A DNA stretch of 32,000 bases. It comes from Candidatus Electronema aureum (GTDB lineage Bacteria > Desulfobacterota > Desulfobulbia > Desulfobulbales > Desulfobulbaceae). Positions 9,950 through 18,653 of the stretch are shown here, in pieces (position 1 is the first letter of the stretch; each line of letters begins with the position of its first letter). The stretch is taken from assembly GCA_004284765.1 (NCBI GenBank), contig NQJD01000009.1, forward strand, positions 30,001 through 62,000, in the 5' to 3' direction. The notes under the pieces are model-generated. The model worked only from the letters and a program-made list of their open reading frames with translations, was not told the origin of the DNA and did not search any database. A program made the translations under genes and the position numbers.

Positions 9950-12601
9950 ATGGCTTCACAGAACGACCAGCGTGCCACCGATTTCGAGGAAGTCAAACGA
10001 ATCCTTGAACAACAACCGCGCATTACCTTAATGCAGACGGAAGGCGAGCCGCCTGATTGCTACGAAATTGAATACCGACTGGCTGGAATGGTGCGGGATG
10101 CTGACGGGACTATCCGTAAGGCTTCTCAGCATGTGGTTCTCATCACTCTGCCCTTTGGCTATCCTCATTTTCCGCCCACTGTTAAGCCGCTGACTCCACT
10201 TTTTCATCCTGATATTGATCCAGATGCAGTACGCATTTCTTCACACTGGCAACAAAGTCCTTCTTTAGCCAAGCTCATTGTTCAAGTCGGCGAGATGATT
10301 TGTGGTAAAAACTACAATCTCGAAGACCCCTTTAATCAGGAAGCAGCAGACTGGTATGCCCAACACGCTACCGAATTGCCACTTGACAGCTTAGAAGTGG
10401 CGAGCGATGAATCAATTGACGAATTTGATCTGGGACTTGATGATCTTGATTTGGGGCCGACAGGAGGAACCACTGAGGAGCAGTCCTTCGAGCTATCTTT
10501 GGAGTTAGAGTCACCGCAGGCTGTTCATGATGTTTTGGCCGATGCTTCTGCTGATCATCAAGAAGGCGGAACAGGAGGGCTATCGCTGGAACTGGAATCT
10601 TCATCGACAACACTTGAGGAAGATTTTGATCTTGGCGTAGAGGATGGGCAAGAGGATGATCTGTCCTTAGATATCGGTGAACCAGAAAAACCGCCGCAGG
10701 TTGTTCAACAGGATTTTGGGCCAAAGCTGAAGGAAATTCGCTCGCATATTGATCGAAAGGAAATATTTATCGCCGCGCGGCTGCTGAAAGAAGTTCCTGC
10801 GCTCCCGGAAACGGAGATACTCAAGAAGAAGGTCAAGGCCGCGCAAGATAAGTGCGATGAATTACTCCAGAACATGAAGGTGCTGGAGGATGAGGACAAT
10901 TTTGCGGCAGCGCAAGAGGTATTTACCCAGCTCAAGACCGTGGCGGTGGACACACCCGGTTTAGCTGAAATAGGCAGACGCTTGCAGCAGTCGCAGTCCA
11001 TGCTCGATACTTTTGCCCTAACCAAAGAAAAAACCGAGCCGGAAACCGAGCTGCCCGGCGCAGAAAAAAAGAAAAAAAAATCTGCCAAAGAAACACCACC
11101 TCCTCTGCCTAAACTAAAGGAAAAACCTGCCGAGCCGAAGGAAAAGAAAGAGGTTATTAAAACCAAATCGAGGATTATCCGAGCAGCGCAGCAGAATGTG
11201 CCGGTCGCGCCTTTTGCTGTTGCCGCTGCGGTAGCTGCGGTAATCATCGTAGGTGGGCTGGTTTACACCAGAGATAGCAACACTCTCTTAGAAGCGCAGC
11301 GCGATTGGCAGGAAGCCCAAGGTCTTGTCAAGCAAAAGAATTTTCCCCAAGCAGAGGCCAAAATCAACATCGCTTCTGCGGCACTGAAAACGGTACTCAC
11401 TCCTTTGCCGGAAAAAAGCCGAATCAAGACTGAAATTGCTGCATTATTTGCCAATGAGGACTTTCAGCGCGGATTGAAAAATGAGGCCAAGTATAAAGAT
11501 CAGTATCTACCGCTTCAAGAGGTCAAGGCGCGCGAGCAGTTAGACAAGATGACCACCCAAGCCGAGGCGTTAAAAGCAAACAGCGTCAGCGATGCCGCAG
11601 CTGCTTACGAAAAAGCCCAGTCTTTTGCCGCTGAAAGCGGATTAGTCGTCGAAGCGGAGCAGTTGAAAGAGCGCGTGCATCAATTGCGGATGAAAGAGGC
11701 GTTGGTCAATGCCGGACGGGCAGAAACTGCTGGAGAGTGGGAAAACGCGGCCAAAACTTATCAGCAGGCTTTAGAAATTGCCCAAACCTTGACAGATGAC
11801 AAGGAAAAAGAGGCCATCAGCAAGAGATTAGCCGCTGCTGCCTTCAACCGCGAATTAGATCAGTCCAAAAAAAGTTTCACCGGCTCGCAGTGGCAGCAGA
11901 CCATTGAAATGCTGGAACGGGCGAAAAAATTACTGGAGCAGAATCCAGAAACTGCTACGGTTGAACGGCGGCAGGAGTTAGAGCGACTTTTGGCCAAGTC
12001 TCGTTTGCATCAGGTGCTTTCGACAGCGCGGCAGGCTTATGACAGCGGTGATACCGCTACCGCAGTGAGAGGCTACCGGCAGTCACTGGCTTTGCTCACG
12101 AACCAGCTGTCATTGTTCGACGAAACAGACCGCAACGCTGCCCATTCAATCAGCAGAACCATCACCATGATTGAAATCGGCGGTGAGCTGAACGCAGCAG
12201 TGACAGCGGAAAACCAGAAGGAGTTGACCGATGCGCTTCGCCATTATCGGGCTATTCAAAATCTTTTCAACACGCCCGGATTAACTAAGGATTCCAGCCT
12301 GCTGACATTGGAGGAAAATGTCAATGCCAAAGTCAGCAGCCTGAGTAGCGAAGCAGGCATGAAGCGAAAGACTGCGTGGTTGAACCGAAATTTTAGACGC
12401 ATCTTTATGGAAGTTTATCCAAATTCACGTCCAACTGATCTCAGCAATCCAAATCTCAGCTTGGTCAAAAAAGTTGGCAATCAAGAAATCTACAAACTGA
12501 CCTGCACCGAGCGAAGCAGAGGCAGCGCGTATCAACTTGAACTTATTTATCTCTACGACCCAGTTGCCGATCAGTGGATAGCCTACCGGGGCGTGCTGTG
12601 A
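9950..12601 (+). CDS. Single-pass membrane protein: N-terminal E2/UEV-like (UBC-fold, no catalytic Cys) domain, acidic repeat region, coiled coil, Lys-rich segment, TM helix, and a long helical (TPR-like) C-terminal region
   Basis: HVVLITLPFGYPHFPPTVKPLTPLFHPDIDPDAVRISSHWQQSPSLAKLIVQVGEMICGKNYNLEDPFNQEAADWY aligns by eye with the E2 core ([41 protein letters not shown].L......L..I..LL..PNPDDPL..EAA..Y). The TM helix is PFAVAAAVAAVIIVGGLVY (about nt 11198..11268). Confidence 0.8.
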   Translation: MASQNDQRATDFEEVKRILEQQPRITLMQTEGEPPDCYEIEYRLAGMVRDADGTIRKASQHVVLITLPFGYPHFPPTVKPLTPLFHPDIDPDAVRISSHWQQSPSLAKLIVQVGEMICGKNYNLEDPFNQEAADWYAQHATELPLDSLEVASDESIDEFDLGLDDLDLGPTGGTTEEQSFELSLELESPQAVHDVLADASADHQEGGTGGLSLELESSSTTLEEDFDLGVEDGQEDDLSLDIGEPEKPPQVVQQDFGPKLKEIRSHIDRKEIFIAARLLKEVPALPETEILKKKVKAAQDKCDELLQNMKVLEDEDNFAAAQEVFTQLKTVAVDTPGLAEIGRRLQQSQSMLDTFALTKEKTEPETELPGAEKKKKKSAKETPPPLPKLKEKPAEPKEKKEVIKTKSRIIRAAQQNVPVAPFAVAAAVAAVIIVGGLVYTRDSNTLLEAQRDWQEAQGLVKQKNFPQAEAKINIASAALKTVLTPLPEKSRIKTEIAALFANEDFQRGLKNEAKYKDQYLPLQEVKAREQLDKMTTQAEALKANSVSDAAAAYEKAQSFAAESGLVVEAEQLKERVHQLRMKEALVNAGRAETAGEWENAAKTYQQALEIAQTLTDDKEKEAISKRLAAAAFNRELDQSKKSFTGSQWQQTIEMLERAKKLLEQNPETATVERRQELERLLAKSRLHQVLSTARQAYDSGDTATAVRGYRQSLALLTNQLSLFDETDRNAAHSISRTITMIEIGGELNAAVTAENQKELTDALRHYRAIQNLFNTPGLTKDSSLLTLEENVNAKVSSLSSEAGMKRKTAWLNRNFRRIFMEVYPNSRPTDLSNPNLSLVKKVGNQEIYKLTCTERSRGSAYQLELIYLYDPVADQWIAYRGVL

Positions 12602-12852
12602 TGGTGGTGGTGATGCTCATGCCCCGGCGCAGCTAAGGGGCCGCCTGCTTTATGCAGAGCTTCCGTCAAAGCGTGTTGCGCGGCCTGAAGAGCTTCCACC
12701 GCGCTGCGCAAAAGGGCGGTTGTTTCTGGTGATTCGGCAGCCAACTTGTCTGCCCATTGCAGGAATTCTGTGCTATGACCTTGATTATGCTCAAGCCAAT
12801 GCGGCAGTAGCACCCGTACTTTGTCCAGATTATTCATCATTTGCTCCTTCAT
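12583..12852 (-). CDS. Small helical protein with a C-terminal poly-His tail (putative metal-binding partner of CooT)
   Basis: 89 aa with the motif HWLEHNQGH and the tail PGHEHHHHHHSTPR. Its start overlaps the CooT-like stop by 4 nt (12849-12852). Its 3' end overlaps the convergent 883-aa gene by 19 nt. Confidence 0.65.
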   Translation of the reverse strand: MKEQMMNNLDKVRVLLPHWLEHNQGHSTEFLQWADKLAAESPETTALLRSAVEALQAAQHALTEALHKAGGPLAAPGHEHHHHHHSTPR

Positions 12853-13052
12853 GTTGTTTTTTCTTCGCTGATGAGCAGAATCGCACCGGTCAGCAGGCTG
12901 ATGCTTCTGACCCGCACCCCCCGCACTGTCATCGGTTCCTCAAAAAAGGTGCTGAGAATCACACCATCCTCAGTCACTTCCACGCCAGTGACCGATTCCA
13001 TCAAGGTTTCGCAGCGATCTCCTCGCTCAAGCACTGCCTTTAGTTGGCACAT
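12849..13052 (-). CDS. cooT: CooT-family nickel-binding protein
   Basis: The 67-aa product MCQLKAVLERGD...VTGVEVTEDGVILSTFFEEPMTVRGVRVRSISLLTGAILLISEE aligns with Rhodospirillum rubrum CooT (MCMAKVVL...VLEVRAEGGAVRVTTLFDEE...RVDLRSGVISLIEE), including Cys2. ATG 13052 is preceded by GGGAGGG. The longest ORF (13139) is an unsupported extension. Confidence 0.85.
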   Translation of the reverse strand: MCQLKAVLERGDRCETLMESVTGVEVTEDGVILSTFFEEPMTVRGVRVRSISLLTGAILLISEEKTT

Positions 13053-13062
13053 TTTTCCCTCC

Positions 13063-14055
13063 TTAAATAAGAAAACGGAACTCGCCCTTGCCGAGTAGAT
13101 CGTGCAAATGCAGCAAACCTTGCACCTTGCCCGCCGCATCAGTCACTGCGAGTACAGTGATATCCTTTTCCTGCATCAGGCTGAGGGCATCAGCAGCCAT
13201 GAGTTCTGGAGTGATCTTGACCGGGCTGGTGGTCATAACCTCAGCGAGATTCATGCAATTCTTTCGCCCTGGTTCGGTCAGCAATTGGCTGCGGATCAGG
13301 CAGCGACGGAGATCACCGTCCGTGATGATGCCACGCAGCTCACGATCAGCAGCTACGACCAGCACTGCACCAAGGTTTTTGCAGTTCAACTCGGTAATTG
13401 CCGCGTCAAGATTAGCTTCTTCGCTGACCATCGGCACCTGTTCACCAATGAGCATGACCTCGCGCACAGCCACCTTGAGGCGTTCGCCCAAACTGCCGCC
13501 GGGATGATTGCGCCGGAAATCCTCCGCCTTGAAGCGGTGCCGCTGGAGCAGGGCCACAGCCAGGGCATCGCCGAGGGCCAAGGTAGCGGTCGTGGAGGTG
13601 GTCGGAGCCAAGCCCAGTGGACAGGCTTCCTTGGGGATTGCGATATTCAGTACCACCGCCGCCTGTTCTGCCAGCGAGGAGCGAGGATTGCCGGTCATGG
13701 CGATCACTGGCACGGTACGTTCTTTCAGACTGGCTAAGAGGCGGTTCAGCTCCGCTGTTTCGCCAGAATAAGAAATCGCCAACACCACGTCTGTTGGGCT
13801 GACCATCCCAAGATCGCCGTGCATCGCCTCGACCGGATGGAGAAAAAACGATGGTGTACCAGTGGAATTAAAGGTAGCCGCCATCTTTTGGCCGACCAGC
13901 CCAGACTTGCCAATGCCAGTGATGATCAGACGGTTCGGCGGGCAAGCCATGATCAGGTCAACCGCTTGGACAAATTCCTGCCCCAGCGCGTCCCGCACGG
14001 CATGAATGCCCTCAGCCTCAATGGTCAACACCTCGCGGGCTTGCTCAACGGTCAT
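13063..14055 (-). CDS. kdsD: Arabinose-5-phosphate isomerase (KpsF/GutQ/KdsD family; SIS domain plus tandem CBS)
   Basis: ITGIGKSGLVGQKMAATFNSTGTPSFFLHPVEAMHGDLGM is the SIS domain motif. The C-terminal CBS pair includes GAVLVV and GIITDGDLRR. Confidence 0.9.
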   Translation of the reverse strand: MTVEQAREVLTIEAEGIHAVRDALGQEFVQAVDLIMACPPNRLIITGIGKSGLVGQKMAATFNSTGTPSFFLHPVEAMHGDLGMVSPTDVVLAISYSGETAELNRLLASLKERTVPVIAMTGNPRSSLAEQAAVVLNIAIPKEACPLGLAPTTSTTATLALGDALAVALLQRHRFKAEDFRRNHPGGSLGERLKVAVREVMLIGEQVPMVSEEANLDAAITELNCKNLGAVLVVAADRELRGIITDGDLRRCLIRSQLLTEPGRKNCMNLAEVMTTSPVKITPELMAADALSLMQEKDITVLAVTDAAGKVQGLLHLHDLLGKGEFRFLI

Positions 14056-15071
14056 ACCTTTTCTCCTGTCAAATCAACGACAATTCGCCCGCGTATCTGG
14101 CCTGCCAGCATTGCATCAACTGCTTCGCTGACCTGATCGAGATCAATGCGGACGCTCAGTTGCTTGAGCGTATCCGGCAAAGCGGTCCGCCACGGCCCGG
14201 CCAATTTTGCCCAAATTTCTTCCCGGCGAGAGAGCGGGCATTCAGCGGAATCAATCCCGACCAAGCTAACCCCACGCAGAATGAAGGGGTAAACGGTCAG
14301 AGGTAGCTCGCCAGAGGCCGCGTTACCGCAGCAAGTGACGATGCCGCCGTATTGCGTGGTTTTGATTGCACCAGCCAAGATTTCGCCGCCCACCGTGTCA
14401 ACCACACCTGCCCAGCGTTCGCGGAGCAAAGCCGCGCTGGCCCGGCCTATGGCCTGTTGGCGATTCAGCACCGCCGTGCAGCCGAGCTGACGGAGGAAGT
14501 CGTGCTCGCTTTCCTTGCCGGTGACAGCGGTGACAGCAAAGCCGAGCTTGGCCAGCAGGGCACAGGCCAGCGAGCCGACCCCGCCGGTCGCGCCAGTAAC
14601 CAGCACCGGCCCTTGCTCAGGCCGCAGGCCAAGGGCCAGCAGCTTGTCCACGCACTGGGCGGCGGTGAAGCCTGCGGTGCCGATCTGCATAGCTTCGTAC
14701 AGCGAGAGCGGCTCCGGCTTGGGCAGCACCCATCCTGCCGGAACGCGGATGTATTCGCCAAAACCGCCGGGCGTGTTCATTCCAAGATCATAGCACATGC
14801 AGACGACTTCGTCGCCCTCGGTAAACTGCGGCACGGTCGAGGCCGCCACTACGCCTACTGCGTCAATGCCCGGCGTGTGTGGATATTTCTTGGTTACACC
14901 TCGGTTGCCGCTGGCGGAAAGGGCATCTTTGTAATTGAGCGAGGAAAAATGCACCCGAATCAGCACGTCGCCGGGTGGCAGATCGGCAATGCGGCGTTCT
15001 TCAACGGCCCGTTGAAAGCTGCCGCCCTCTTCCCGCACGACTAAGGCGCGGAAGGTTGTTGTTTTGTTCAT
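14052..15071 (-). CDS. yhdH: YhdH/AcuI-type NADPH-dependent MDR oxidoreductase (acrylyl-CoA / quinone reductase family)
   Basis: The product is collinear with E. coli YhdH: VHFSSLNYKDALSASG, PGIDAVG, VTGATGGVGS, GGIVTCCGNAASGELPLTVYPFILRGVSLVGIDS and GQIRGRIVVD. Confidence 0.9.
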   Translation of the reverse strand: MNKTTTFRALVVREEGGSFQRAVEERRIADLPPGDVLIRVHFSSLNYKDALSASGNRGVTKKYPHTPGIDAVGVVAASTVPQFTEGDEVVCMCYDLGMNTPGGFGEYIRVPAGWVLPKPEPLSLYEAMQIGTAGFTAAQCVDKLLALGLRPEQGPVLVTGATGGVGSLACALLAKLGFAVTAVTGKESEHDFLRQLGCTAVLNRQQAIGRASAALLRERWAGVVDTVGGEILAGAIKTTQYGGIVTCCGNAASGELPLTVYPFILRGVSLVGIDSAECPLSRREEIWAKLAGPWRTALPDTLKQLSVRIDLDQVSEAVDAMLAGQIRGRIVVDLTGEKV

Positions 15072-15089
15072 GAAGTTAAATGATATTCA

Positions 15090-16385
15090 CTATGGCGTAT
15101 TTGTGCATAACGGTATCTCCTTCAAAAGGAGATTGTGATTTTCTTCTACCTTGTAATCATAGTTAATTTTAAAAAAATCTATTTCTTTTTCTCTTTTTTC
15201 ATACGAAGAAAGGATGTTGTAAATATTATTGGCGGTCGTGGAGTAGTTATGGCCGCTATATTCCATAGAGATTCTTTTGTAAATATTTTTTACCTTTTCA
15301 AATAGATGCCTTTTATCACTATCTTTCTCGTAACATTGAAGTAGATACATATTTAACCCAGCTATGCTGATCTGGGCTTCAGGGATAAAAGAACTTTTTG
15401 GAAACTTTTTTATAAAAGATTCGTAACGACCTATTTGTTCATCAACAGACTCTATGCTGCACTCATATTCGTATGGAATATGTAGATAAACATCAGCAAG
15501 AGCTTTCTGATCATCGCTTGCGTTTTTATTGTTAATAACTTTACGGTAAGGCTTTGCTACTTCTTCCATCTGTGCACACTCACCAGTACACTCTTGGTCA
15601 ACTTTATCAACGGAAGTGGAATTGATCGCTGATGTCGCTGACTGCGTCTTCTCGATTTTTTGTTTTTGATTTGCTGCGTCAGCAGTTACAACTTTGTTTT
15701 CTTTGGTTACAGAAATAGGATTATTCTCCTTTTTAGGAATATAAGCATCCTGTTGAGTTGCAATTTGATTATCCTTCTTAACCTCAGCAGGATAGAACTT
15801 GTAATAGAAGAAAACAAAGGTTGCGACAATGACAAAAGATGTAATTACAATTTTATTTTTGCTGATAAAAATTTTATTGTCTTTATCGGTTTTATTTTCT
15901 ATACGCTCAAAGTTTATATTTGCTTTAAAGTCAGATTCAGTTTTTTCTAAATTTTTTACTTTTTTAATTGAATCGCATTGAGTAATTCCTATCGCTTTGA
16001 TTAAACGCTGATATCCATTCGCTTCATATAAATTCATCCAGTGCCAGCGACTAAGACGAGCTGGAACCTCGCAATCTTCAAGGCGGACAGGAATAATAAA
16101 TATTTTTCCTTCCGGTTGTTCTTCAGCAGCATCAAGTGCAAAACAGATTTCTTTCTGAACGTATCCGCGTTTGTTGACTGAATTTCTGGAAAGACAAACA
16201 ATCACTATAGCGGAAGAGCGAACAGCTTTACGAATTTCATACTGCCAGTCTTGCCCAGGCAAGAGGTCTTCTTCATCGAGCCAAGGATAATAACCATCCT
16301 TTTTTAACCGATGATATAGTTCCCTGACTTTTGCTTTGTCAGCCGAAGAATGGCAGAGAAATATGCGAGAAGAAGGTGATGTCAT
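15090..16385 (-). CDS. TIR-domain membrane protein (N-terminal TIR_2-like domain, one TM helix, Cys-containing helical C-terminal domain)
   Basis: RIFLCHSSADKAKVRELYHRLKKDGYYPWLDEEDLLPGQDWQYEIRKAVRSSAIVIVCLSRNSVNKRGYVQKEICFAL fits the bacterial TIR pattern (hhhSasS.D, W.D, L.PG..W, hhhhhS..S..S.WV..E). The TM helix is IVITSFVIVATFVFFYYKF. The gene is strongly AT-rich relative to its neighbours. ATG 16385 is preferred over TTG 16391. Confidence 0.85.
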   Translation of the reverse strand: MTSPSSRIFLCHSSADKAKVRELYHRLKKDGYYPWLDEEDLLPGQDWQYEIRKAVRSSAIVIVCLSRNSVNKRGYVQKEICFALDAAEEQPEGKIFIIPVRLEDCEVPARLSRWHWMNLYEANGYQRLIKAIGITQCDSIKKVKNLEKTESDFKANINFERIENKTDKDNKIFISKNKIVITSFVIVATFVFFYYKFYPAEVKKDNQIATQQDAYIPKKENNPISVTKENKVVTADAANQKQKIEKTQSATSAINSTSVDKVDQECTGECAQMEEVAKPYRKVINNKNASDDQKALADVYLHIPYEYECSIESVDEQIGRYESFIKKFPKSSFIPEAQISIAGLNMYLLQCYEKDSDKRHLFEKVKNIYKRISMEYSGHNYSTTANNIYNILSSYEKREKEIDFFKINYDYKVEENHNLLLKEIPLCTNTP

Positions 16386-16404
16386 AGCCAATGCAATAAG
16401 TTAT

Positions 16405-17163
16405 TCAATTCAATGTAGTATTGATATCCTCTGCCCTAATCGGACTCACATCCCCAGCCATCACCCGCTGTTCCCTACCGCAGCGGTCAATTATAACATA
16501 TCGCCCGTCCTCGGCAAGTCCTGCGCCGACCGCTGGGATCACTTTGTCCTGACTGCAATATTCCAGCGGCCTGTTGAGCAAATAATCTCGCTGCCGCCAT
16601 TCGGCCAGCAAGTCGGCCTTGTCCTCCTTGAGTCGCTCTGTCGCCGCAAGCAGATCCTCAACTAAACCCGGCAGCAGGGCGGCAGGATTGGCCGCTGCCG
16701 CGCCAGTCTCGGCCAAAGCGATGATCCTGCCGCGCAGCTCCGGCGGAAAGCCCTGCGACAAGGCGGCAACGTTGATACCCACCCCGACCACCACAAATTC
16801 CGGCAGCCCAGCCCGCAGCGGCCCGCTTTCGGTGAGAATGCCGCCGAGCTTTTTGTCGGCAAAATACAGATCATTGGGCCATTTGAGCAGCGGCTGCACA
16901 CTGACCGCAGCCATAAGGCCACGGCACAGCCCGACCCCGGCGGCCAAAGTCAACAGCGGGAAATCGACAAGCTCCAGCTCCGGGCGCAGAATCACGGAAA
17001 AATACAAACCGCCGGGCGGCGAGCAAAACTGCCGCCCGTTCTGCCCGCGTCCGCCGGTCTGTTGATCAGCGTGAACCACCGTACCCTGCGCCGCACCCTG
17101 CCGGGCTAAATCAAGGGCTATGCTGCTGGTCGAATCAACAACCGCAAAATGATGCAGTTGCAT
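16405..17163 (-). CDS. birA: Biotin--[acetyl-CoA-carboxylase] ligase, without an N-terminal HTH (group I)
   Basis: Motifs QTGGRGQNGRQFCSPPGGLYFSVIL and KWPNDLYFADKKLGGILTE. The start overlaps the dnaN stop by 1 nt (TGATG). Confidence 0.9.
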   Translation of the reverse strand: MQLHHFAVVDSTSSIALDLARQGAAQGTVVHADQQTGGRGQNGRQFCSPPGGLYFSVILRPELELVDFPLLTLAAGVGLCRGLMAAVSVQPLLKWPNDLYFADKKLGGILTESGPLRAGLPEFVVVGVGINVAALSQGFPPELRGRIIALAETGAAAANPAALLPGLVEDLLAATERLKEDKADLLAEWRQRDYLLNRPLEYCSQDKVIPAVGAGLAEDGRYVIIDRCGREQRVMAGDVSPIRAEDINTTLN

Positions 17164-18311
17164 CAGGCGATGGACGGCGGGCTGCTCAATTTCATCGGCA
17201 TGACGATGCCGAGAAAACCTTTGTCATCCGCCGAGCTGATCAGGCAAGGGCTTTCGTCTGAGCTGACTGCGGCAGAAATGGCATCGCCTTCCAGCACCGA
17301 AAGTGCCTCAATGAAATAGCGACAATTGAAACCCATGCAGAGATCATGACCGCTGTAAGTGATTTCAATCTCATCTCTTGCTGAACCAAAATCCGCATTT
17401 TCTGAAGTCAGAATAAGCCTATTGCCTTGCGCTTCAAAGCGGATGGCATGAAAAATATCCTCGGTGAAAAGATTAATCCGCTTCAGCGATTCAAGAAACA
17501 TGATCTTGTTAATGATCATGCTATTGTCACTCGACAGCGAGCGGAGGATATTCTCAAAATCGGGAAAATCTCCTTCCATCAGACGGATGACCAAAACCGA
17601 GTTCTCGCTTTGCAGCACTAATTTCTTCTGATCAACTCCTATTCGGCAGTTATCTAATTCTTCGCAGAACTTGCGCATTTGCTGCACACCCCGGCGAGGA
17701 ATCAGGACTGATTGACCAAAATCCAGTCCGGCCAAACCCGCTGCTTCTCGGTTCATAATGCTCAGGCGGTGGCCGTCGGACGTAACCATCCGCAGCACGG
17801 TCTTGCCTTCCTCCTCGCGCTTTTGCAGCAGGGCAGCAGTGAGGTTGTACATGTTCTCGCGGTCAGCAGCGATGGAGAACAAGGTTTTGTCGATCAGGTC
17901 GCAGAGCGCGTCGCTTTCCACATCGACCAAAGCCTGCTCGTCGTATTGGTCAAACTGGGGGAACTCCTCGCTCACCATGCCAGCTAACCGATAGGTGCTG
18001 CTGCCCGCACTGATGCGAATCCAATTCTTCTCCTCTTCTTTGAAATTGATCGTCTCTGAGCCAGATTCGCGAACCAACTCAAAGAGCTTTTTTGAAGGAA
18101 TGGTCAGGGTTCCGCCTTCAAAAACCTCGGCAGGTACGATCTGACGCAGACTGACCTCCAAGTCGGTACCAGTGAAAATCACCTCGTTGTTCCGCACTTC
18201 CAGCAGCACGTTGGAGAGAATCGCCAGTGTGCCCTTCTTGTTCGTGATGTTTTGCTGGGCACTGATCGCGTCCAAGAGGTCTTTCTTGGCGATGTTAAAA
18301 TGGAACGGCAT
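17163..18311 (-). CDS. dnaN: DNA polymerase III beta sliding clamp
   Basis: The N-terminus is FNIAKKDLLDAISAQQNITNKKGTLAILSNVLLEV, the length is 382 aa and the C-terminus is GIVMPMKL. GGAG lies 9 nt upstream of the ATG. Confidence 0.95.
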   Translation of the reverse strand: MPFHFNIAKKDLLDAISAQQNITNKKGTLAILSNVLLEVRNNEVIFTGTDLEVSLRQIVPAEVFEGGTLTIPSKKLFELVRESGSETINFKEEEKNWIRISAGSSTYRLAGMVSEEFPQFDQYDEQALVDVESDALCDLIDKTLFSIAADRENMYNLTAALLQKREEEGKTVLRMVTSDGHRLSIMNREAAGLAGLDFGQSVLIPRRGVQQMRKFCEELDNCRIGVDQKKLVLQSENSVLVIRLMEGDFPDFENILRSLSSDNSMIINKIMFLESLKRINLFTEDIFHAIRFEAQGNRLILTSENADFGSARDEIEITYSGHDLCMGFNCRYFIEALSVLEGDAISAAVSSDESPCLISSADDKGFLGIVMPMKLSSPPSIA

Positions 18312-18341
18312 AATAAGTACTCCTTTTATATATAAAAGACT

Positions 18342-18510
18342 TGTTGATATTGGGGCTGTTGATTTGTTGATAACAGACGCAACAAGCTGGTATCAAACGA
18401 ATTGCCCTGTTGATAACTTGGTAGTTCTTTGTTAATAAGATCAGCCTTGCCTTGGTTCCTAACAGGGTTGCTAACACGTTATCAACAAGTTGTTAACAAG
18501 TTATTAACAA
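18342..18510. promoter_or_regulatory. Cluster of DnaA-box-like 9-mers (candidate oriC or DnaA-regulated dnaN promoter)
   Basis: TGTTGATAA / TTATCAACA occurs exactly at 18365-18373, 18408-18416 and 18479-18487. One-mismatch variants lie at 18342-18350, 18357-18365, 18430-18438, 18490-18498 and 18501-18509. The motif differs from the DnaA consensus TTATCCACA at one position. An AT-rich patch TTTTATATATAAAAG lies at 18325-18339, and the flanking genes diverge. Confidence 0.5.
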
Positions 18511-18653
18511 GCAAACAGGCACGGGCCAGAGAAGAGGAAATATACCAAGTTGCCGCCTTGGTGACGATCTTTTATTTCAGCCAAGAGCCGCTGTCAGTTG
18601 CAATTTTGCCCAAATTGAGGTAACTCTGCTTGAAATTCAACCGTCGGAACGCC

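Follow-up and report, generated by a model that had tools for sequence, protein, structure and literature searches.

A predicted membrane-spanning TIR protein in an AT-rich single-gene cassette of the cable bacterium Candidatus Electronema aureum

The stretch of DNA analysed here (the window, 32 kb) belongs to the freshwater cable bacterium Candidatus Electronema aureum and contains an AT-rich islet that is a horizontally acquired single-gene cassette, patchily distributed and kept under selection. The gene of this islet encodes a protein of 431 residues in which an N-terminal TIR domain is followed by a predicted transmembrane (TM) helix and by an all-helical C-terminal domain that is predicted to lie in the periplasm. 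We give about even chances to the reading that the protein is a stand-alone envelope-sensing TIR effector, i.e. a self-contained type II sensor-effector, and it is from sequence that we infer NADase activity, a defence function and receptor-type signalling. TIR effectors with variable sensor modules are already known; what is new is the predicted placement of such a module in the periplasm. The islet and the parts of its gene are the following.

15072..16404, no strand: AT-rich islet, from the yhdH-like start to the birA stop, seen in composition profiles
15090..16385, minus strand: TIR-TM-periplasmic-domain gene, 431 aa, with its stop codon at 15090-15092 and its ATG at 16385
16002..16364, minus strand: TIR_2 domain (Pfam PF13676), aa 8-128, predicted cytoplasmic
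16149..16151, minus strand: codon of Glu79, the putative catalytic glutamate, from alignment and a codon check
15852..15980, minus strand: Lys/Asn-rich cytoplasmic linker, aa 136-178, with a low predicted local distance difference test score (pLDDT)
15795..15851, minus strand: single predicted TM helix IVITSFVIVATFVFFYYKF, aa 179-197, from the Kyte-Doolittle scale
15591..15794, minus strand: low-complexity, probably disordered periplasmic spacer, aa 198-265 (~65 aa)
15093..15590, minus strand: C-terminal all-alpha domain of 8 helices, BamD/CpoB-like (TPR-like), predicted periplasmic, aa 266-431

Domain architecture of the TIR protein

The N-terminal domain, described as TIR_2-like in the first-pass annotation of this DNA, matched the Pfam TIR_2 profile (PF13676) over residues 8-128 (E = 5.9e-29; 101.5 bits, with a cut-off of 28; positions 1-121 of the 122 in the profile). 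When the protein was aligned by HMMER with solved structures, Glu79 matched Glu77 of the SPARTA TIR-APAZ protein and with the KE of Paracoccus PdTIR, and it was invariant in 126 of the 126 TIR domains extracted from the 120 best matches. As the E77A substitution is the catalytic mutant in the SPARTA papers (PMC9097488), Glu79 is regarded as the putative catalytic glutamate, at the position where the first-pass annotation had placed the catalytic residue of TIR NADases.

More than 1,800 proteins contain a domain with 60-73% identity to this TIR domain; they include entries assigned to Acidobacteria and Chloroflexi as well as many metagenomic proteins without names. Further relatives were found on plasmids of filamentous bacteria (Chlorohelix and cyanobacteria). 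This clade is unusually well conserved and is joined to very many C-terminal modules, including FGE-sulfatase, Clp_N, CarboxypepD_reg, CHAT, kinases, HTH, vWA and EADs, among others. The type is the one that Kaur, Burroughs, Iyer and Aravind treat in their work on conflict systems in multicellular prokaryotes (PMC7159879, PMC8195603). On one metagenomic contig (L023, 4285-12160), four tandem paralogues of the clade (TIR only; TIR-FGE-sulfatase; TIR-FGE-sulfatase-TIR; TIR-Tricorn/PD40 propeller) lie beside HicAB and HepT/MNT modules, in what looks like a diversifying TIR array.

Downstream of the TIR domain, the Lys/Asn-rich linker noted in the first-pass annotation was recovered at residues 136-178; it has the lowest GC content of the gene (0.217) and is poorly conserved across the three orthologues. 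The single hydrophobic segment (residues 179-197), also anticipated as one TM helix, has a Kyte-Doolittle 19-residue mean of 1.97 and is a helix in the AlphaFold2 model, although the full-length model, built from three sequences, is poor (pLDDT 43). As the N-terminal TIR domain carries no signal peptide and is followed by a single helix, an N-in, C-out (type II) topology is predicted. The helix is followed by the spacer of residues 198-265, which has a pLDDT of ~25-30, shows no secondary structure and lies outside the conserved domain of the family alignment. The layout proposed earlier, a TIR domain, a TM helix and an extracytoplasmic helical domain, thus holds at the level of prediction.

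The C-terminal part had been described as a Cys-containing helical domain of ~230 aa. It is indeed all-helical and has five Cys, but its folded part comprises only ~165 aa (residues 266-431) after the spacer of ~65 aa. With a 29-sequence alignment, AlphaFold2 modelled this domain as 8 helices with a pLDDT of 92.7 and a predicted template modelling score (pTM) of 0.87. An exhaustive profile search over 1.84 billion representative proteins gathered ~35 clusters sharing a common domain of 130-170 aa, and the ten members that were looked up were all rare metagenomic proteins without names. The domain contains the motif PYEYEC..VD.QI..Y..FI..FP.S.F.PEA...IA.L..Y.LQC, to be compared with the family signature PYEYEC..VD..I..Y..FI..YP.S.Y.PEAL..IA.L..Y.LQC. 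None of the 33 relatives scanned possessed a TIR domain, which indicates that the fusion is specific to Electronema.

No Pfam model was found for the C-terminal domain, and the query itself gave no YfiO match, whereas a weak one (E ~1e-4) was obtained for 2 of the 33 relatives. Compared with the PDB, the family profile matched CpoB on the FI..YP.S.Y.P.A hairpin (E = 2.7e-4) and Rhodothermus BamD/YfiO across 125 residues (E = 2e-3), so that the BamD/YbgF-like stretch reported in the first-pass annotation is real as a weak, remote relation. A Foldseek search against the PDB returned nothing significant (best E 0.2-0.5, TM-score ~0.45), the best of these non-significant matches being TPR-like (Tom20, BamD, YbgF-TPR and MamA). 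The domain shares with BamD/YfiO and CpoB (YbgF) the F-I-x-x-[FY]-P-x-S-x-[YF]-x-P-x-A hairpin and may share an all-alpha repeat fold and a periplasmic location (predicted here), but differs from them in its own PYEYEC...LQC signature and probable disulfide. It may accordingly be described as a new family that is remotely related to CpoB and BamD.

Three observations place the domain outside the cytoplasm. Family members carry it behind a Sec-type signal peptide (e.g. P0132 and P0135) or behind a TM helix preceded by a cytoplasmic zinc-ribbon, DnaJ or kinase module; CpoB and BamD, the only relatives that could be detected, are periplasmic; and two of the Cys co-vary across the family. Cys309 and Cys351 were both present in 17 sequences, both absent from 9 and present singly in only 3 (Fisher p = 2e-5, ignoring phylogeny), which fits a disulfide and thereby supports an exported domain. 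The extracytoplasmic location is therefore predicted. One relative with a zinc ribbon, a TM helix and the domain (P0123) belongs to a series of genes (L024, 5518-9886) for small zinc-ribbon, TM and BON proteins together with a Peptidase_C92 gene, which suggests an envelope-associated gene cluster.

The first-pass annotation did not recognise the layout as a described system. Among the 120 closest TIR relatives, 24, of which 21 are outside Electronema, had a single hydrophobic segment downstream of the TIR domain followed by 100 aa or more, a count that is indicative only since the hydrophobicity predictor is crude. Their tails included CarboxypepD_reg, BNR/sortilin-like, CBM, NlpC/P60 and FGE-sulfatase modules. 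No named defence system fits the E. aureum protein, as had been supposed, but its layout is not unique: the TIR-TM-tail arrangement appears from these sequences to be recurrent and, as far as could be found, undescribed. A 2024 survey of TIR defence in E. coli reported TIR systems made of one protein and found TM or TPR domains in some of the newly described ones; according to its authors, TM-plus-repeat features like those of Toll-like receptors seem absent from bacterial TIR systems (PMC11350192).

Acquisition, distribution and selection

The gene lies head-to-tail between two core genes identified by Pfam, as stated in the first-pass annotation, and the genes dnaN, birA, TIR, yhdH and kpsF are all on the minus strand.

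16405..17163, minus strand: birA-like biotin-protein ligase, upstream flank (Pfam BPL_LplA_LipB)
14052..15071, minus strand: yhdH-like zinc-type oxidoreductase, downstream flank (Pfam ADH_N and ADH_zinc_N)

Counted from a TTG, the open reading frame (ORF) spans 15090..16391 (minus strand) and 433 aa. The start conserved among orthologues is the ATG at 16385, giving the 431 aa that agree with the database entry of Candidatus Electronema aureum (P0001), to which the product is 100% identical. Of the intergenic gaps of 13-18 nt given earlier, the 18 nt to the yhdH-like start (15071) stands, while the gap to the birA stop (16405) amounts to 13 nt only from the TTG and to 19 nt from the ATG. The best sigma-70-like match of the region (16490-16517, minus strand; TTGCCG-16-TATAAT with a TG extension, 10/12) lies ~100 nt ahead of the TIR start, within the 3' end of birA; as it is also kept in a genome without the insert, it may be mere coding sequence.

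The base composition of the segment is foreign, as the first-pass annotation claimed. GC contents of 400-nt windows were 0.31-0.36 across 15201-16000, compared to a mean of 0.533 outside the islet (standard deviation 0.051; minimum 0.42), corresponding to a z of -4.4 for the islet. All 400-nt windows below 0.40 in the 32 kb fell inside 15001-16300, and the low-GC zone spans ~15050 to 16450. The gene itself has a GC content of 0.355 (35.5%) and a third-position GC content (GC3) of 0.309, against GC3 values of 0.63 for dnaN, 0.66 for birA, 0.68 for the yhdH-like gene and 0.65 for kpsF. Hand counts in the first-pass annotation were about right (e.g. 18% GC at 15850-15899), but the chimeric origin that it derived from the GC-richer TIR-coding third was not borne out: GC3 is 0.319 in the TIR part and likewise 0.319 in the C-terminal part, so the higher GC content of that third comes from amino-acid composition, and a chimeric origin is rejected.

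The birA-yhdH junction was compared in relatives by a dnaN-anchored scan over species-representative genomes, which yielded 20 loci. E. nielsenii (L003) has the same order as E. aureum (rSAM-dnaN-birA-TIR-yhdH-kpsF-E2/TPR). In UBA5173 (L004), the next closest genome with a dnaN 90% identical, birA is followed by yhdH after a 72-nt spacer, without a TIR gene; thus an empty site exists. The third Electronema species with the gene (L001) carries an orthologue 77% identical at a different locus, where the neighbours differ and are unrelated (PPDK / TIR / 97-aa ORF / DUF533). A further five to six Electronema species (L005-L010) have another housekeeping gene after birA, those recorded in L005-L008 and L010 being a class II tRNA-synthetase-like gene (PF00152), GAPDH with carbonic anhydrase, ClpB, a phosphonate-binding protein and a cyclophilin-FKBP PPIase; these differences mark the position as a synteny breakpoint. 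In E. nielsenii, a ParE-toxin/Phd-YefM-antitoxin pair is inserted between the TIR gene and yhdH (L003, 13306-13771), indicating that the same junction took up accessory genes more than once. Overall, the gene is not universal, and the empty site in UBA5173, the other locus in L001 and the foreign GC3 agree with the horizontal acquisition proposed in the first-pass annotation.

In the junction alignment, genomes that carry the insert and those that lack it have different birA 3' ends, and homology among the three TIR loci stops within ~10 nt of the ORF. Neither repeats, direct or inverted, nor a target-site duplication were found at the borders of the cassette. Among 5.8 billion proteins, the full-length fusion was represented by the three Electronema orthologues only; a scan of JGI metagenomes for full-length relatives beyond Electronema gave TIR-domain matches only, and a plasmid search likewise returned TIR-domain matches only, at no more than 57% identity. 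The protein is therefore an orphan, as stated earlier, with respect to the full-length fusion but not to its parts, as each domain has relatives (the >1,800 proteins for TIR and ~35 clusters for the C-terminal domain). A phage origin was also considered and rejected, with no relatives in IMG/VR or GenBank phages and no viral structural matches; PHROGs matches were confined to the TIR region, save a weak one (E = 0.001) over residues 33-260.

The synonymous divergence (dS) of the TIR gene between E. aureum and E. nielsenii is 0.42, within the 0.26-0.72 of its neighbours, which places the gene already in the common ancestor of the two species. The ratio of nonsynonymous to synonymous divergence (dN/dS) of the whole gene is 0.26 against E. 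nielsenii, and the dN/dS values obtained among the three species lie between 0.12 and 0.31. Values of 0.12 in the TIR domain and 0.23 in the C-terminal part point to purifying selection on both; for the periplasmic domain, positive selection was unsupported at the whole-domain level (dN/dS 0.23-0.29). Synonymous third-position changes against L003 and L001 imply an equilibrium GC3 of ~0.40 for the TIR gene and ~0.62 for its neighbours, an estimate that rests on small counts (46 changes from A/T to G/C and 27 in the opposite direction); on this estimate, the AT-richness looks maintained rather than merely not yet ameliorated.

Function and alternative explanations

In the reading of the protein as a stand-alone envelope-sensing effector, the predicted periplasmic TPR-like domain would bind a protein or peptide of the envelope that belongs to the cell itself or to an invader. 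Altered binding (e.g. on envelope damage at phage entry or loss of the partner) would change the clustering of the protein in the membrane, and clustering would allow the TIR domains to meet, TIR enzymes needing contact to form active sites; activation of TIR enzymes by oligomerisation is described in, e.g., 10.1101/2023.09.23.559129. The TIR domains would then cleave NAD+, and the depletion would stop the growth of an infected or damaged cell or kill it, an ADP-ribose-derived signal being an alternative output. No nearby partner gene would be needed.

Several points weigh against this reading. PADLOC and NCBIfam matches cover the TIR part only and are far below the family cut-offs. The TM helix was called from a hydrophobicity scale alone, with flanking charges that are not decisive, and the signal would have to cross the membrane through that single helix and two low-complexity linkers. 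The relation to BamD and CpoB is borderline (profile E = 1e-3 to 1e-4; Foldseek E > 0.2, TM-score ~0.45), and the co-variation test of Cys309 and Cys351 was made without phylogenetic correction. Moreover, the C-terminal family is fused elsewhere to DnaJ, zinc ribbon, kinase, SH3, M23 peptidase and BON modules and has no other link to defence genes, so that the domain could report ordinary envelope physiology.

The matches that are confined to the TIR part and lie below cut-off also indicate that the protein belongs to none of Thoeris, CBASS/Pycsar, SPARTA and retron-TIR, and no full PADLOC or NCBIfam defence model was matched. Based on Pfam annotations of the scanned genes of the 32 kb, no Thoeris, CBASS or pAgo partner gene was found within ±15 kb, in line with the earlier claim that a partner is lacking. 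The other scanned genes were housekeeping genes or had no Pfam match; they include CbiK, an Fe-siderophore ABC transporter, a PilT-like ATPase, S1, Sua5, KpsF, DnaN, radical-SAM enzymes, MinCD, a Mur ligase, BI-1 and a heptosyltransferase.

Among known systems, single-protein TIR defence offers a close likeness. In E. coli, such systems confer phage protection that depends on the TIR active site, and some of them include TPR or TM domains (PMC11350192); SpbK of B. subtilis is reported to be a single-gene TIR abortive-infection NADase (PMC12847820). Like them (TIR-II with TPR, TIR-V/VI/IX and the TM-containing type in PMC11350192; SpbK in PMC12847820), the E. aureum locus consists of one gene, whose product combines a TIR domain carrying the Glu with a non-catalytic accessory domain; a signalling partner would not be required, and the gene is accessory and horizontally mobile. 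The genomic context is also that of a single-protein TIR system, with foreign composition, an empty site, another locus in a related species and a toxin-antitoxin pair beside the gene in E. nielsenii. The proteins differ in that the accessory domain of E. aureum is predicted to lie across the membrane and is BamD/CpoB-like, the sequence relation being limited to the TIR fold; the TPR of E. coli TIR-II is cytoplasmic and of the Avs/STAND type, unlike the domain described here.

The protein also resembles the TIR-FGS, TIR-EAD and TIR-CHAT conflict proteins (PMC7159879, PMC8195603) in its TIR clade, in its arrangement of an N-terminal TIR domain, a linker and a variable C-terminal module, and in its multicellular host; TIR identity to TIR-FGE-sulfatase, TIR-Clp_N, TIR-EAD and TIR-CHAT proteins was 60-73%. 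Unlike the systems of Kaur et al., it lacks a vWA-MoxR, STAND NTPase or EAD partner, no vWA, MoxR, STAND NTPase or EAD having been found in the protein or in the neighbourhoods of the window and L001, and its variable module is predicted to be extracytoplasmic and belongs to a family not named in PMC7159879 and PMC8195603.

This likeness bears on a non-immune alternative, in which the protein would be an envelope-surveillance or programmed-cell-death switch of the multicellular filament: the periplasmic domain would monitor a periplasmic structure or partner in the filament envelope, and the TIR domain would kill or silence a damaged cell. The full-length fusion was found only in cable bacteria, the TIR clade is of a type reported from the conflict and apoptosis-like systems in which multicellular prokaryotes are rich (PMC7159879, PMC8195603), and the remote relatives CpoB and BamD are envelope-biogenesis proteins. 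However, the gene occurs in only three Electronema species, is absent from the others sampled and has a foreign composition, features that suit a core filament function poorly, and the C-terminal family is not specific to cable bacteria. We regard this alternative as unlikely.

A second alternative is that a membrane-bound TIR enzyme makes an ADP-ribose-derived messenger, as ThsB does, for an effector encoded elsewhere in the genome. Thoeris TIR domains produce cADPR isomers or His-ADPR, and the E. aureum protein shares with ThsB a TIR domain with the conserved Glu at the catalytic position and weak ThsB-type profile matches in PADLOC (E 2e-4 to 4e-3). Unlike ThsB, it is predicted to be membrane-anchored, has a large extra domain and lacks a ThsA neighbour: no ThsA gene (SIR2, SLOG, Macro) was found among the scanned genes of the window (±15 kb) or beside the L001 orthologue, and the score for NCBIfam ThcB4 was 18 bits against a cut-off of 220. 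These points make the messenger explanation quite improbable. The comparison with CBASS and Pycsar gave no SAVED, STING or cNMP-binding Pfam domain in the protein and no cyclase gene in the window, the PADLOC SAVED_TIR match covering the TIR part only. In the comparison with SPARTA, similarity to TIR-APAZ ended at about residues 104-133, with no APAZ domain, and no pAgo gene was found nearby.

Toll-like receptors share a topological logic with the predicted E. aureum protein, in that one TM helix connects a TIR domain in the cytoplasm to a binding domain of the alpha or solenoid type on the other side of the membrane. They have the TIR domain at the C-terminus (type I), whereas it is N-terminal in the E. 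aureum protein (type II), whose ectodomain is predicted to be TPR-like and has no leucine-rich repeats and whose TIR domain keeps an enzyme-type Glu; the protein is thus an analogue and not a homologue beyond the TIR fold. That the TIR-TM-tail proteins, about one fifth of the clade by the above count, amount to an unrecognised class of receptor-type bacterial TIR proteins, a functional analogue of Toll-like receptors with inverted polarity that senses periplasmic or extracellular cues, is a tentative proposal that we find somewhat doubtful. A third alternative is a non-catalytic TIR domain that acts as an interaction module or scaffold and would tether a cytoplasmic partner to a periplasmic BamD/CpoB-like envelope protein. 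TIR domains are adaptors in animal Toll-like receptor signalling, and the C-terminal domain is elsewhere fused to non-enzymatic cytoplasmic modules (zinc ribbons, DnaJ). Yet the catalytic-position Glu is invariant in the 126 related domains, the TIR domain is strongly constrained (dN/dS 0.12) and the bacterial TIR defence proteins that have been tested need this Glu (PMC11350192), which makes a scaffold very unlikely.

Zorya (ZorAB) is comparable in concept, its membrane component being reported to sense envelope events and to elicit a cytoplasmic response (PMC11946911); the proteins are unrelated, and Zorya is a multi-gene motor complex with nuclease effectors. Finally, a silent or decaying passenger, i.e. 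foreign DNA at a rearrangement breakpoint without current function, is extremely improbable: in its favour are the extremely foreign composition, the synteny breakpoint that the genus shows after birA and the lack of a clear Shine-Dalgarno sequence ahead of the ATG, but the ORF is intact in three species at a dS of ~0.4 and a dN/dS of 0.12-0.31, invariant functional residues are kept, and the tight same-strand packing with birA and the yhdH-like gene is operon-like.

Other genes of the window and significance for cable bacteria

Three further features of the window were observed. At 9950-12601 (plus strand), a protein of 883 aa possesses an N-terminal UQ_con domain (ubiquitin-conjugating-enzyme-like; E = 2.5e-8), followed by a long acidic and Lys-rich linker, a hydrophobic segment and a C-terminal half with TPRs; it also adjoins kpsF in E. 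nielsenii (98%) and UBA5173 (60%), and is an unusual membrane-associated bacterial E2-like protein. Within 12583-13139 (minus strand), a protein of 89 aa ending in HEHHHHHH, without a Pfam match, adjoins a homologue of the CooT-like nickel chaperone (PF10133, E = 5.6e-14), and the two look like a nickel-handling pair. At 17163-18630, dnaN adjoins none of dnaA, recF and gyrB; the stop of dnaN and the start of birA overlap, and a radical-SAM/DUF4080 gene is divergent from dnaN. This dnaN arrangement is kept at all nine other Electronema-related loci (L003-L011), though birA is elsewhere in E. halotolerans.

In the literature searched, no experimental study of defence or cell-death genes of cable bacteria and no paper linking cable bacteria with TIR domains was found. 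The present analysis documents a clean presence/absence polymorphism in these organisms and newly defines a predicted periplasmic domain family that has no Pfam entry and is confidently modelled. To our knowledge, those bacterial TIR proteins that have been characterised are triggered by cues within the cytoplasm (phage proteins, nucleic acids, second messengers), as do the characterised TIR systems compared here, whereas a receptor-type class, if real, would sense periplasmic or extracellular ones. If the proposed function is correct, the coupling of a TIR enzyme across the membrane to a domain that binds proteins in the periplasm would extend bacterial TIR biology to outside-in activation and would offer a tractable one-gene model for the control of TIR oligomerisation from across a membrane.

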